Assembly: GCA_964447495.1 (NCBI GenBank)
Contig: CAYUTF010000015.1
Location: 1 to 10,286, forward strand
Direction: 5' to 3'
Source of the DNA: an uncultured archaeon
GTDB lineage: Archaea > Asgardarchaeota > Lokiarchaeia > Sigyniarchaeales > SOKP01
Length of the DNA: 10,286 nucleotides
Below, one piece after another: positions 2,782-6,510 of this stretch; the stretch's first letter is position 1, and each line of letters opens with the position of its first letter. A program made the translations under genes and the position numbers. A model generated the notes under the pieces. The model did not search any database, was not told the origin of the DNA, and saw nothing but the letters and a program-made list of their open reading frames with translations.

Positions 2782-3222
2782 TTATCCTTGAGGCTTTCTT
2801 TTATTGAATAATTGCTTTAATTCACTCATAATCGCACCTCTCAAACTAACAGGACTTGCGGGGCGTAAGGCTCCTGGTGCTCCAGGCGGCCCACCTGGTG
2901 GCGGTGGTGGTCCTCCTGGCGGTCCTCCTGGTGGTCCAGTAGGAGGCGGGGGGGCGCTTATAGGAGTTGTAGGCGTTGCAATTATAGGTGTTGATAAACC
3001 ACTTCCTTTTTTAATATTATTAACTTCATTATTTATTGTATTAATCCTTGTTTCTATTGTTGATATTTTTTGATTTATCGCCGCTATTGATTGTTCGACT
3101 AAATCAGGAATTTTTAAAATCATAAACATCATTTTTTCAACAATATCTCCAAATGCATTAAGTTTTTCCTCAAGAGGTGCTTTTCTTGTCTCTTGCATAA
3201 AATTTGCGAATTCTTCTGCCAT
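2782..3222 (-). CDS. Coiled-coil + polyproline + C-terminal amphipathic helix protein (putative actin regulator, WASP/WAVE/VASP-like architecture)
   Basis: Ile/Val heptad repeat at aa 42-70, Pro/Gly tract at aa 91-116, and C-terminal SLRGAIMSELKQLFNKRK. The ORF is well supported; the function is inferred. Confidence 0.65.
   Translation of the reverse strand: MAEEFANFMQETRKAPLEEKLNAFGDIVEKMMFMILKIPDLVEQSIAAINQKISTIETRINTINNEVNNIKKGSGLSTPIIATPTTPISAPPPPTGPPGGPPGGPPPPPGGPPGAPGALRPASPVSLRGAIMSELKQLFNKRKPQG
2909..2937. repeat. 12-bp tandem repeat within the polyproline-coding GC-rich patch
   Basis: GGTCCTCCTGGC GGTCCTCCTGGT GGTCC on the + strand, encoding GPPG-type units on the - strand. Confidence 0.75.
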
Positions 3223-3332
3223 ATTATTCTCTCTATTTTTGATTATTAAGAATTAATGCTAATAATTTTTCTATTAATTATATATTTGATATATTTAATA
3301 AATTTAAGTTCCTCCCTAATGATTAAAGATAT

Positions 3333-3357
3333 AAAAAAAATATAAAGAAAATCAAAA
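3333..3357 (-). terminator. Possible archaeal oligo-T terminator after the BAR-like gene
   Basis: The minus strand reads TTTTGATTTTCTTTATATTTTTTTT shortly after the stop at 3365. Confidence 0.35.
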
Positions 3358-3364
3358 TTAGCCT

Positions 3365-3994
3365 CTAGCTTGATTTAAAGACAGAATTTTTTAATTGAAT
3401 CCATAATTCATTAACTTCATCCCTAACTTCAATAAATTGATGGATTTTTTTAATTAGGACATCTCTTGCTCTATCGAAATCTCTTTGATAATCATTTAGC
3501 TCTGAATCCAAAATTTTTAATTTTTCTCCTTCAATCAACTTATTTTTTGCTTTCTCAACATTTAAGGCTTTTTTAATAAGTGCACCTCTTTTCCCAGCAA
3601 CGTCATTCAAAGCATTAGCTAATTCATTTTTTTTTTGGATAAAGTATTCTTTTTTAACGGTAAGATTTTTAATTGCATCAATATATTTATTATTGCCTTC
3701 TATAAACTCATCATTTTTATGAACAATATCCTGAAATAAATTAACTTCCTCATCTTTAATATTAGAACGCTTTTCTCTAACTAATGTTTGCATTTGCTTT
3801 AAGACATCTCTATAAGTTCGATTCAGCATCTCTCTTTCTAAATTAACTTTTGTAAGAGCTTCTGCATATTTCTTTTGTGCATTGATAAGAGTATTTTGAG
3901 CCTTAGCTAACTTGCTTATATGATTTACTAACTCTTTCTCTGTGCTTGCTAATTCAAGTTCATCCTCATGGGTAATAATTGGACACATTTTCAT
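3365..3994 (-). CDS. All-helical ~200-aa coiled-coil protein, putative BAR domain (SNX/Vps5-like)
   Basis: Three long predicted helices (~10-75, ~81-152, ~156-206), a single Pro (aa 5), a basic patch before the helix 2-3 turn, and YQRDFDRARDVLIKKIHQF resembling SNX-BAR helix 3. An alternative start at 3988 is possible. Confidence 0.6.
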   Translation of the reverse strand: MKMCPIITHEDELELASTEKELVNHISKLAKAQNTLINAQKKYAEALTKVNLEREMLNRTYRDVLKQMQTLVREKRSNIKDEEVNLFQDIVHKNDEFIEGNNKYIDAIKNLTVKKEYFIQKKNELANALNDVAGKRGALIKKALNVEKAKNKLIEGEKLKILDSELNDYQRDFDRARDVLIKKIHQFIEVRDEVNELWIQLKNSVFKSS

Positions 3995-4076
3995 CAGATT
4001 TAATTTTTATTAATAAAACTTAGATAATATTTTAATGGAAACTCATAATTATAATTTTTTAGGTTTTTGTATATTA

Positions 4077-5114
4077 TTAATTTGTTGGGAAAGAAGCAGT
4101 GATAATATTATCCTTATAGTTTGCTTTTATAACTTTAACAGATATTTTTTTTCCTAATAGAGTAGGTGAAAATTTAAAAGGATTTTTCAGTAATATCTTA
4201 ATTCCAAAATTTCGATTTATCATCCCAATACATTCTTTTTCCCAGCGTCCTCTGCAAACAACAATTACATCAATAACATCATTTTTCTTTAGAAGCAAAT
4301 TAGATATGCTTTTTCTTTTATGTATATTAAAATCGTGTGGTCCCAGTTTTAATTTGATTCTATATTTTTTTTCAAGCTTAGTTAATTGCAGATAAAAATA
4401 TTTCCATGATTTTGGACGTATTTTCTTTAATTTGCGGCCTGTTTTATAAATTAAATATTTCTGAATTCCTAATTGGAGCTGCTTTTCATTATATCCCTTA
4501 CTTCTTAATTCTATAACATATTTAATAATATCCTCAATATCAGTATCATTTTCACCCGGAAACCAGACTGGTGCAATTAAAACATCGATATTTGACTCTA
4601 AGAGAATATTAATATTATTTAAAAGTTTATTGATATCATAATTATTACACGAGCATAGATAACTCGCCATATTCTTATCTAATGTATTTAAACTAATGTT
4701 TATTCTGCTAAGCTTAGCTTTTTTCAACTTTTCTATGACTTCTCTGTCAAGTAACAAACCATTGCTTTGAACTGAAATTGTTTCTATTCCCTCAATCTTC
4801 CATAATTCAGATATTAAATCAAAAAATTCTCGATATAATAGTATTTCACCATATGGCGCTATATGAATCTCAATTTTATATTTTCCCTTGATGGAAATTA
4901 TTTCTTTTATTTTTTCTATCAAATAGGAATGATTTACCACAAAATTAGTTACATAATCTCCTGCACTGACAAAGCAATATTTACATTTAAGATTACATAG
5001 AGTAAGAGGTTTTACTTCAATAATATTTGTTCCTCGATCAATTACTCCAAAGAAGTCGATTCCCATTAAGGGAATATTCGAATTATAATCTACGTAAACT
5101 ACCGAGTCTTTCAT
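4077..5114 (-). CDS. Archaeal radical SAM protein (COG2100-like) with C-terminal TRAM-like beta domain
   Basis: CNLKCKYC (CxxxCxxC) preceded by IPLMG..FGVIDRGTNIIEV, plus QSNG and RINISLN motifs. The beta-rich C-terminus (VIDVIVVCRG...GKKISVKVIK) fits a TRAM-like domain. Confidence 0.88.
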   Translation of the reverse strand: MKDSVVYVDYNSNIPLMGIDFFGVIDRGTNIIEVKPLTLCNLKCKYCFVSAGDYVTNFVVNHSYLIEKIKEIISIKGKYKIEIHIAPYGEILLYREFFDLISELWKIEGIETISVQSNGLLLDREVIEKLKKAKLSRINISLNTLDKNMASYLCSCNNYDINKLLNNINILLESNIDVLIAPVWFPGENDTDIEDIIKYVIELRSKGYNEKQLQLGIQKYLIYKTGRKLKKIRPKSWKYFYLQLTKLEKKYRIKLKLGPHDFNIHKRKSISNLLLKKNDVIDVIVVCRGRWEKECIGMINRNFGIKILLKNPFKFSPTLLGKKISVKVIKANYKDNIITASFPTN

Positions 5115-5146
5115 GTTAATTATTATATTATTTGAATATTAATATA

Positions 5147-6220
5147 TTAAATCTTATATCTTAATATCGCTACTAAAGAGCCTAAATCAACAATTTGCTG
5201 TCCTGTGAGATGTTCACTACTTAATATGTTTATTTTTCCCCCAGATTGTTCGACAAGATTTAGTATGTCTTCGATTTGAAGTTTTTTTTCTGTAGAAACA
5301 CCTCTAATTAGAGTATCAGCACAAAATAATTCTTTAACTGCACCCCTTTCTGCTGCTCTAGAGATTTCCTTTATCCCTATCGCAATTAAATCGGGTTTTG
5401 TGCTGAAAAGTTTAAATATTTCTTCAATTTTAGCGACTTCTTGTATGATTTTCACATTATTTTGTAGTTTAGTCAATTTATCTGATTTTAAAGTTTCAAT
5501 TATTGCACTTTCAGTACCAGAACTGGCATGAATATTTTCAATAGGAGGTAAACTAATATCCTTTAGTTTTTCTTTAATGACTTTAGAAAAATGTTCACGA
5601 GTGTTTCCAGGTCCACATATAACTATTAGATCAATTTTAGTTGATTTAATGTTTTCTTCTACTATTTTTGTGATTCCACTGAAAAATTCCTCATATGCTT
5701 CATTACGGTACTTTTGCTCATATCTTTTTCCTGGTATTGTTGTCTTAATCGTTGCTATTCTAGTATTACTAAAATTTGATACTAAGACTATTGTTGCTAA
5801 CCCTGTTTCTATAGCAATTATCAACATTAGAAAATTTTTTTCAAATATTGACAACTCTTTGATGCGTTTTAGTTCACTTTTTAACCATTTTTCTTTCTTA
5901 ATTGATAATATTTGATCTATTTTGATATTTAAAGTATGATAGCTTCCAAAGCTGACATAATCTTCAGGACCTTCAATTATTGTGCCTTTAATTCTTAATC
6001 TGTTTGAAAACTCATGGAATGATAGTGATTCAACCTTTATCTTTAATCTCATAGGCTTTCTTTCTCCTTTACTTCCTTCTTTTAATACTATTCTTCGGTG
6101 GGTTTGAGCGGAAACTTCATCGTCTTTAGTAATGACATTAAAGAGTGCCCATAAATCATTTAAACTTTCTGTTTTTAATACTAATTCTTCATTTTTTTTG
6201 TCAAATTCCATGATTTTCAT
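5147..6220 (-). CDS. pelA: Pelota/Dom34 mRNA surveillance (ribosome rescue) protein
   Basis: ESLNDLWAL, RLRIKGTI, GSYHTLNI, IPGKR, CGPG, GAVKELF, SSEHLTGQQI..LG..AILRY; 357 aa. Confidence 0.96.
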   Translation of the reverse strand: MKIMEFDKKNEELVLKTESLNDLWALFNVITKDDEVSAQTHRRIVLKEGSKGERKPMRLKIKVESLSFHEFSNRLRIKGTIIEGPEDYVSFGSYHTLNIKIDQILSIKKEKWLKSELKRIKELSIFEKNFLMLIIAIETGLATIVLVSNFSNTRIATIKTTIPGKRYEQKYRNEAYEEFFSGITKIVEENIKSTKIDLIVICGPGNTREHFSKVIKEKLKDISLPPIENIHASSGTESAIIETLKSDKLTKLQNNVKIIQEVAKIEEIFKLFSTKPDLIAIGIKEISRAAERGAVKELFCADTLIRGVSTEKKLQIEDILNLVEQSGGKINILSSEHLTGQQIVDLGSLVAILRYKI

Positions 6221-6316
6221 AATTTTGGCACAAATTCTATTTTATTATTAATTAAACTAGTAGTAATATACAAAATTGATTAATTTAATGGTGAATTAGA
6301 AGTTTACAACTTAAAT

Positions 6317-6341
6317 AAAAGTAATAAAAAAAAGATAAAAA
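6317..6341 (-). terminator. Possible oligo-T terminator downstream of the 50-aa ORF
   Basis: The minus strand reads TTTTTATCTTTTTTTTATTACTTTT about 17-41 nt after the TGA at 6358. Confidence 0.4.
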
Positions 6342-6357
6342 TACTAAGCAATTTTTT

Positions 6358-6510
6358 TCATTGCTCTCCTAAAGCTTCCTTAATTTTATTTAACTCCTCC
6401 ATTCGTTTCTTTTTTTCTTCTTCGCGCTTCTTTAATTCTTGTTCATCAACCTTCTGGAGAGAGACACCCTTTTTAATCTCATTCTGCAATTCTTTATCGA
6501 TTGGAGCCAT
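6358..6510 (-). CDS. 50-aa microprotein with WH2/actobindin-like motif and charged helical tail (not in ORF track)
   Basis: Hand translation: MAPIDKELQNEIKKGVSLQKVDEQELKKREEEKKKRMEELNKIKEALGEQ*. It is more GC-rich than the flanking intergenic DNA, has SD-like AGGTAA at 6525-6520, an in-frame stop just upstream that fixes the start, and a T-tract downstream. Confidence 0.8.
   Translation of the reverse strand: MAPIDKELQNEIKKGVSLQKVDEQELKKREEEKKKRMEELNKIKEALGEQ

Follow-up and report, generated by a model that had tools for sequence, protein, structure and literature searches.

Locus and conservation of its genes

The stretch analyzed here (the window) covers 10,286 nucleotides (nt) of contig CAYUTF010000015.1 (assembly GCA_964447495.1, positions 1 to 10,286 of the forward strand), from an uncultured archaeon of the Lokiarchaeia (Sigyniarchaeales, SOKP01). 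Its actin-family genes and the database names of its relatives likewise identify the source as a Loki-type Asgard archaeon. The window is A+T-rich (20-35% G+C) and contains a run of minus-strand genes at 2782-7061, within which lie three co-oriented genes, at 2782-3222, 3365-3994 and 6358-6510 in the list of open reading frames (ORFs). They encode, respectively, a 146-amino-acid (aa) protein with a proline-rich arm, a 207-aa protein with a predicted BAR-like fold, and a 50-aa microprotein resembling the WH2 and beta-thymosin motifs of eukaryotic actin-binding proteins. An original prediction, made from the DNA sequence, had joined all three into a single locus coupling membranes to actin. It placed the genes correctly, as it did the 142-nt gap between the BAR-like and polyproline genes (3223-3364) and the pelota and radical SAM genes that lie in between. 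We find instead that the stretch probably consists of separate conserved gene blocks, each with its own proposed role, which are neighbors in one family of Lokiarchaeia and do not form one machine.

All three genes are real and conserved in Lokiarchaeia, and are not chance ORFs, even though none of their products reaches any Pfam or NCBIfam cut-off. At E <= 1e-3, database relatives numbered 505 for the 207-aa protein (the best 120 being at least 70% identical to it), 204 for the 146-aa protein and 195, all of 49-51 aa, for the microprotein. Across the 151 genomes of the class, the 207-aa gene was present in 129, the microprotein gene in 131 and the 146-aa gene in 141. The first two have the same range, namely the four families of the source's own order, and were found in 0/7 genomes of the class's other three families, all seven of which do carry the 146-aa gene. 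In the genomes searched, the 207-aa family is restricted to this one order of Lokiarchaeia.

Gene neighborhoods

Linkage was counted by hand over the rows of the per-genome searches in these 151 genomes. Of the 115 genomes of the source's own family with a 207-aa match, 108 carry the 146-aa gene on the same strand as the 207-aa gene and no more than 0.5 kb downstream of it. In the three sister families, the two genes come within 0.5 kb of each other in 4/14 genomes, in other orders (the 146-aa gene upstream in three, divergent in one). The 207/146 pairing is thus a recurring conserved neighborhood. The microprotein gene behaves differently, being within 7 kb of the 207-aa gene in 102/115 own-family genomes vs. 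0/14 sister-family genomes. GNAT and pelota genes stay its neighbors at three of the five sister-family loci examined: the window's order, with GNAT before and pelota after the microprotein, is also seen in L047, L050 and L051, and extends to the radical SAM gene in L047 and L051. When the 207-aa and 146-aa genes are apart, the former comes after RNase PH-L37ae-Pcc1 and the latter after Elf1; at L053 and L055, an Elf1 homologue immediately precedes the 146-aa homologue. At these two loci, a gene of ~206 aa before the 146-aa homologue had been considered as a 207-family paralogue, and proved to be Elf1.

Given these counts and the differing neighbors outside the own family, the three genes therefore represent separate blocks that adjoin in one family. 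The synteny and co-occurrence check suggested with the original prediction comes out divided: the shared range and the 207/146 adjacency hold, whereas the linkage of the microprotein does not extend beyond the own family, and the single membrane-actin coupling module is accordingly not supported.

Table 1. Features of the window, with the residues and conserved segments of the three proteins.
Feature	Position	Strand	Basis
Elf1-type zinc-ribbon protein	363..944	+	PF05129, 69.9 bits
Adaptor-like 146-aa protein with an N-terminal helical/coiled-coil domain, a proline-rich arm and an invariant helix at the C-terminus	2782..3222	-	ORF, 204 relatives, alignment
146-aa protein, residues 120-146: near-invariant end helix RPASPVSLRGAIMSELKQLFNKRK ("docking helix")	2785..2865	-	alignment, GTPase matches
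146-aa protein, residues 76-119: proline-rich arm PPPPTGPPGGPPGGPPPPPGGPPG	2866..2997	-	ORF, alignment
146-aa protein, residues 1-75: conserved N-terminal helices and coiled coil with Asn-rich heptads	2998..3222	-	alignment, PDB profile
142-nt spacer between the 207-aa and 146-aa genes	3223..3364	-	T8 run and A+T-rich TATA-like stretch, sequence reading
207-aa three-helix BAR-fold-like protein, start at second ATG	3365..3988	-	ORF, relatives' starts, AlphaFold2, fold searches
Radical SAM gene, member of the GNAT-microprotein-pelota-radical SAM block	4077..5114	-	PF04055, 92.5 bits
Pelota (mRNA surveillance), directly downstream of the microprotein	5147..6220	-	TIGR00111, 239 bits
50-aa microprotein, free-standing form of the WH2/beta-thymosin-like module	6358..6510	-	ORF, 195 relatives, alignment
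Microprotein, residues 22-48: conserved charged helix (REEEKKKRMEEL...ALG)	6367..6447	-	alignment
Microprotein, residues 3-21, PIDKELQNEIKKGVSLQKV: amphipathic helix, Gly, then LQKV	6448..6504	-	alignment, 3m3n_W match
RimI-like GNAT acetyltransferase, the gene upstream of the microprotein in its block	6618..7061	-	PF00583, 46.3 bits

A WH2/beta-thymosin-like module in free, fused and tandem form

Broadly speaking, the microprotein consists of two conserved halves. The first (residues 3-21, hydrophobic moment 0.61-0.65) has invariant positions P3, D5, I12, K14, G15, L18 and K20, and shows the succession of an amphipathic helix, a short linker and an LKKV-type stretch (LQNEIKKGVSLQKV). I12, K14, G15, L18 and K20, which are invariant in 28/28 aligned relatives, spell LxxxIxKGxxLxKV, and while a WH2-like pattern alone is at chance level, invariant family columns on the motif positions exceed chance. 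The second half is a charged helix with R29, E30, E31, E32, K35, R36, M37, E39, L40, K42, K44, A46, L47 and G48 invariant, and is retained in the fused and tandem forms described below. The best PDB match of the family profile was to the three N-WASP WH2 repeats of 3m3n_W (whole-sequence E 0.0039), and in the ESM Atlas the first named look-alike cluster has Pfam Thymosin on 52% of its members (score 0.87). No second copy of the module was found in the source genome, including with a broadened profile. The best match to Pfam WH2 in that genome is a 42-aa open frame at C8:28140-28193 on the minus strand (locus L005, 13 bits, E 0.56).

In other genomes, the module is part of larger proteins. It stands behind Asgard profilin domains in proteins of 251 and 258 aa, the profilin part of which matches PDB entries 5zza_P (E 2.1e-9), 5yed_A (1.6e-7) and 7pbh_A ("Profilin," 7.1e-5), and when used as queries against the 47,087 ORFs of the source genome, these fusions match the microprotein (E 3.4e-6 and 9.5e-6). 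In relatives it is also found behind an LRR domain and a Ras domain, and in three genera it forms tandem arrays of about ten copies in proteins of 437-488 aa. In the eight genomes with a tandem match, which belong to these three genera, no free microprotein gene was found. AlphaFold2 modeled the tandem form as long helices with low-confidence loops at the G..L.K[IV]D stretch (predicted template modeling score, pTM, 0.19), a prediction which corresponds to beads on a string and not to a solenoid. Overall, the module is used in the manner of WH2 and beta-thymosin motifs, i.e., free, in roughly ten-fold arrays, and behind profilin, LRR and Ras domains.

A link to Lokiactin comes from the tandem form. 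The tandem ORF L061:1495-2961 encodes 488 aa with a mass of 56.414 kDa, and the sole "56.41" in the supplement of PMC13716822 belongs to GNAMCCOK_04085 (UYP47766.1). In the Lokiactin pull-down tabulated there, this protein comes fourth in the list (log2 4.53, adjusted P 0.0021), ahead of actin itself with 4.44 (PMC13716822). Among the three genes, the WH2-like one is the only one that outside evidence ties to archaeal actin. The original WH2 assignment accordingly gains indirect support from the profilin fusions, the tandem arrays and the pull-down match, although the Pfam WH2 and Thymosin models do not recognize the microprotein.

In the same pull-down list, the three proteins above the tandem candidate are GNAMCCOK_00333 (log2 9.2), 02751 (7.7) and 04250 (5.1), and a 13.3-kDa hypothetical protein, GNAMCCOK_00162, combines abundance rank 47 with a pull-down log2 of 1.35 (adjusted P 0.012; PMC13716822). 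Three guesses made from gene position, GNAMCCOK_04048, 04068 and 04077, were dropped, as they are listed as eIF5A, a 270.5-kDa protein and L18e. Look-ups by exact sequence gave no match for the tandem ORF (two possible starts) or for the 146-aa ORF (four possible starts).

Two proteins of relatives, the LRR protein at L011:1120-2442 and the Ras-family GTPase at L012:986-1939 (both minus strand), carry a microprotein-like half-module and then end in a segment resembling a ribbon-helix-helix (DUF6290/NikA-like, below or near cut-off), and in the LRR protein a helix resembling the tail of the 146-aa protein stands 7 residues ahead of this half-module. In the source genome, which is 98.4% complete, there are a gene for a eukaryote-like actin (PF00022, 442 bits), three more actin-family genes and three profilin-domain ORFs, all of these ORFs on the minus strand (C27:15296-15901, C5:41134-41784 and C12:19861-20235). 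The C27 and C5 profilin ORFs carry a C-terminal extension of ~65 aa (IDPQLKEEIQSFLDWIK...) that is different from the microprotein module. These ORFs were found with relatives as queries; the Pfam profilin model had no match in the source genome, nor in controls. Within the window, the Pfam and NCBIfam scans yielded no actin or profilin family match, as the original prediction had remarked.

The 207-aa protein has a BAR-like predicted fold

The ORF at 3365-3994 is listed with 209 aa; relatives begin two codons later, which gives a protein of 207 aa starting at 3988, the length also of most listed relatives. Its mean column identity is 81% (29 close sequences), and the family is small, as only 35 of 1.84 billion cluster representatives match it at E <= 1e-3. 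The AlphaFold2 model (from a diverse alignment; mean predicted local distance difference test score, pLDDT, 93.0; pTM 0.78) has three long helices (7-70, 79-149 and 154-202), which as predicted are antiparallel and span ~200 residues, the architecture of the BAR superfamily. Foldseek against the PDB listed BAR, I-BAR, F-BAR, SNX-BAR or eisosome proteins in 33 of 43 rows (best E 6.1e-3), and VIA, a fold search that does not lean on Foldseek, gave BAR-type entries in all of its top eight rows (Z of 13.6 for arfaptin, 12.2 for SNX1, 11.6 for Lsp1 and 11.5 for ACAP4). In both searches, the BAR-type entries align along the whole chain (186-197 residues).

At the level of sequence families, no BAR-type family (BAR, Arfaptin, IMD, FCH, Vps5, etc.) matched the protein at E <= 0.1, and at E <= 10 the sole one was a GMIP-like FCH (E 0.56, 9.9 bits vs. 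a cut-off of 27). "BAR-like" is therefore valid as a description of the predicted fold and nothing further: the assignment made in the original prediction is supported at the level of the predicted fold, but not by sequence membership in any BAR family.

An exact-sequence look-up identified the orthologue in a cultured relative as UYP46261.1, which holds rank 46 in protein abundance (supplementary tables of PMC13716822). The 207-aa protein is neither Bar1 nor Bar2 of PMC13716822. A 344-aa relative of the family, P0378, has an N-terminal extension without a family match.

Architecture of the 146-aa protein: coiled coil, proline arm and putative docking helix

The N-terminal part of the 146-aa protein is invariant at A2, E4, F5, F8, P16, K20, F24, G25, E29, M32 and L36 in 32 aligned relatives, and against the PDB the family profile matched trimeric coiled-coil constructs, with 2yo0_A as the best hit (E 1.4e-5, residues 44-95). 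Matches of the same profile to ARHGAP9 (proline/tail, E 0.0019) and BRICK1 (E 0.29) were discarded as compositional. The proline arm differs among relatives in length and sequence, with a PPPPPGGPPG core retained. The end helix, by comparison, is invariant at L127, R128, G129, A130, I131, E134, L135, K136, L138 and F139, for a family end consensus of RPASPVSLRGAIMxELKQLFxKR (32 relatives). The core of this docking helix recurs within a Ras-family GTPase of the source genome (C3:18153-19529, E 1.7e-10), and an Arf/RagA-type GTPase of this genome (C50:13325-14572) ends in a coiled coil and a docking-helix-like tail.

The original prediction had cast this protein as a nucleation-promoting factor with a C-like element separate from the WH2 polypeptide. 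A real and conserved polyproline protein is indeed present, but its end is not WASP-like: the tail is basic (...LFNKRKPQG), none of the 146 residues is a Trp, and an acidic stretch is absent from the tail in 32/32 aligned relatives. A WASP-type central-acidic (CA) element is therefore absent, and the C-like element has to be given up. Nor does the protein resemble Ena/VASP in its domains, as it has no EVH1, WH1, WHD or VASP family match and its coiled coil is N-terminal.

In the class's other orders, 146-aa homologues adjoin V4R-Roadblock/LC7 proteins at two of three loci (L070:1344-5374, L071:1750-4387 and L072:2990-3463). One of these three deep loci carries a tandem pair of 146-aa homologues, and in one a gelsolin-repeat gene (PF00626, 21.6 bits, cut-off 21) lies 0.9 kb from the homologue. 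A 214-aa coiled-coil gene before the homologue in L070 was rejected as kin of the 207-aa family (hhalign probability 0.4%). Two entries of PMC13716822 were likewise set aside: the "Arf" of the pull-down list, UYP48373.1, was considered as a docking-helix GTPase and is without a 146-type tail, and GNAMCCOK_02218 is excluded as the 146-aa orthologue by its mass of 24.01 kDa.

Other genes of the window

The GNAT gene of the microprotein block scores 74.4 bits against TIGR01575, under the cut-off of 86.4. Next to it, on the same minus strand, a second radical SAM gene (PF04055, 40.7 bits) and a nucleotidyltransferase gene (PF18765, 28.5 bits) overlap by 4 nt within 7054-8909, and a CutA gene (9777-10088, 116.6 bits) lies at the window's end. 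Two further minus-strand ORFs, at 953-2623 (556 aa, TTG start) and 8922-9749 (275 aa), are without Pfam or NCBIfam match.

Alternative explanations

Several observations weigh against the roles proposed here for the individual proteins, and they are best considered together with the explanations they would favor. The microprotein may not bind actin at all, and could be a helix-loop-helix protein, small and charged, that goes with the GNAT-pelota block, for instance as a factor associated with ribosomes or translation or as a target of the GNAT enzyme, in which case its WH2 look would be convergent or accidental. This would fit with the GNAT-microprotein-pelota order being preserved across families (the window and 3/5 outside loci), with steady neighbors that are translation-related and not cytoskeletal, and with a C-terminal half conserved as strongly as the motif. 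It would also fit with the failure of the Pfam WH2 (PF02205) and Thymosin (PF01290) models, which find no match to the microprotein at E <= 10 in the source genome and also miss the tandem and profilin-fused forms, and with a strict WH2 regular expression being at chance level (5 matches vs. 3.45 in shuffles, over 3.13 million six-frame residues of this genome). Further, the single WH2 stretches within the 3m3n_W match are insignificant (independent E-values of 20-230), the ESM Atlas score falls below the tool's line of 0.9 and is rated by the tool as a lead only, and GNAMCCOK_04085 was equated with the tandem ORF by mass and rough gene position, not by sequence. However, the fusion partners of the module are profilin domains, an LRR protein and a Ras-family GTPase, not translation factors, its tandem form matches a top Lokiactin pull-down protein, and the microprotein lies away from pelota in 2/5 outside loci. 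Overall, we regard this explanation as rather unlikely, and lean slightly towards the module binding Lokiactin in a WH2/thymosin-like way.

For the 207-aa protein, the contender is a generic, abundant three-helix coiled-coil scaffold without any membrane role, its BAR look reflecting bundle likeness and its adjacency to the 146-aa gene an inherited gene order. The fold-search Z values (10-13.6) fall in the range which the tool also gives for unrelated helical bundles, and the non-BAR bundles SipB, PcsB and PE/PPE come out nearly equal. There is no BAR-family sequence signal, the protein is nearly neutral (net charge just +3, pI 8.7), and the pair is split in 10/14 sister-family genomes, with the RNase PH-L37ae-Pcc1 neighborhood of the 207-aa gene in this arrangement being a housekeeping one. 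Yet BAR-type entries prevail in both fold searches with whole-chain coverage, the 207/146 adjacency is seen repeatedly and in three different arrangements, and the high column identity and the length fixed at 207 aa in most listed relatives speak for tight structural constraints. A plain scaffold is in our view a serious possibility, if somewhat short of an even one. A functional partnership of the 207-aa and 146-aa proteins, in which the docking helix or the N-domain might bind the scaffold, is about as likely as not. A profilin-recruiting role of the proline arm is doubtful, since Loki profilins are reported not to bind VASP polyproline (available part of PMC8410842). The widest reading, that of the original prediction, makes all three genes one primitive module in which the BAR-like protein senses or makes curvature, the polyproline protein is the nucleation-promoting factor, and the microprotein is a WH2 element on a separate polypeptide. 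It can draw on the three genes occurring together in most genomes of the order (with the same range for the 207-aa gene and the microprotein), on their closeness in 102/115 own-family genomes, on the 146-tail-like helix before the half-module in one relative's LRR protein, and on the gelsolin-repeat gene near one of the three deep 146-aa homologues. But the microprotein is near the pair in 0/14 sister-family genomes, where its other neighbors stay with it, the basic 146-aa tail without Trp or acidic stretch offers no CA element, and ARPC4 (PF05856) was not found in the source genome, in a search without positive control, as no control genome gave a match either. Moreover, the Lokiactin pull-down scarcely enriches UYP46261.1, the orthologue of the 207-aa protein (log2 0.71, adjusted P 0.053; supplementary tables of PMC13716822), and a T8 run just past the stop of the upstream gene sits in the 142-nt spacer between the pair. 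That all three proteins form the proposed coupling module is thus unlikely.

Proposed mechanism and implications

Keeping to separate blocks, we propose the following organization. Block A would comprise the GNAT, microprotein, pelota and radical SAM genes, the 50-aa protein being the free form of a portable module of ~45 residues in which an amphipathic helix is followed by a Gly, an extended L-x-K-V-D/E stretch and, last, a charged helix. This module may grip Lokiactin monomers as WH2 and beta-thymosin peptides grip eukaryotic actin, with the amphipathic helix in the barbed-end cleft, the LQKV stretch running along the actin surface and the second helix adding contacts. The microprotein would then sequester or deliver actin monomers, and in some genera the ten-repeat protein would replace it. 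Block B would be the 207-aa protein, very abundant in a relative and with a predicted BAR-type fold, and block C the 146-aa protein, a presumed adaptor whose oligomerizing coiled coil would carry a flexible proline arm and a docking helix. Possibly, this adaptor and the docking-helix GTPases plug into a common receptor, for which the neighboring 207-aa scaffold is a candidate; any role at membranes is likewise putative.

In the available part of PMC13716822, Asgard actin regulation is at present framed as profilins and gelsolins, and in the literature retrieved on Asgard WH2, thymosin, BAR domains, polyproline/actin and Lokiactin nucleation we found no description of the proteins reported here. 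One may speculate that Lokiarchaeales possess a third class of actin regulators beside these two, in which a WH2/thymosin-like module would act free, in ten-fold arrays that may nucleate, and fused to profilin, while a BAR-fold scaffold and a proline-arm adaptor, with a docking helix shared with Arf and Ras GTPases, would link actin to membranes. As a whole we consider this picture improbable, but if it were true, the logic of eukaryotic BAR-GTPase-WH2 coupling would be older than eukaryotes. Its parts would matter separately. With a WH2-like module that exists free and in tandem and is pulled down with Lokiactin, archaea would gain proteins able to sequester monomers or to nucleate, and this short actin-binding motif would have arisen before eukaryotes. 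An abundant BAR-fold protein next to an adaptor whose docking helix is also found on small GTPases would offer a testable entry to the shaping of protrusions.

Comparison with known systems

The module is most readily compared with the WH2 and beta-thymosin motifs (PF02205 and PF01290) of proteins such as WAVE, WIP, Spire and thymosin beta-4. Like these, it has an amphipathic helix, a Gly and an L-x-K-V ten residues past the first Leu, it is used on its own, in tandem arrays and in fusion with an actin-binding domain (profilin), and its tandem form is predicted as helices and flexible loops with no compact fold. Unlike these, the unit includes a long, conserved and highly charged helix as its second half, the tandem repeats are spaced by ~47 residues and many have LKPI, LSKI or LEHI for LKKV, and both Pfam models leave the module unseen.

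The 207-aa protein shares with arfaptin and classical BAR domains (PDB 1i49, 4fzs, 9jih, 2d1l and 1wdz) a size of ~200 residues and three long antiparallel helices, and these entries top both fold searches (arfaptin with Z 13.6 over 186 aligned residues, IRSp53 with a Foldseek E of 6.1e-3). It differs from them in that the alignments show 7-17% identity without a Pfam BAR match, in being nearly neutral, and in belonging to a family limited, among the genomes searched, to one order of Lokiarchaeia, and it is known here from a predicted monomer.

Set against the domain layout of Ena/VASP and WASP/WAVE proteins, the 146-aa protein has a similar succession of an oligomerizing helical part, a GPPPPP-type proline stretch and a short conserved amphipathic helix. 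It departs from both groups in its N-terminal coiled coil and the lack of an EVH1, WH1 or WHD match, and from WASP/WAVE also in a basic tail without Trp or acidic end, hence without a VCA region. A further comparison is with small GTPases: although the 146-aa protein is without a GTPase domain and has a far longer proline arm, the Asgard Arf/RagA-like and Ras-like GTPases (C50:13325-14572 and C3:18153-19529) have its docking-helix core, as PVSLRGAIMSELKQ or SQVLNELKQLFDKKRK, and in the Arf-like GTPase a coiled coil precedes the docking helix just as it does in the 146-aa protein.

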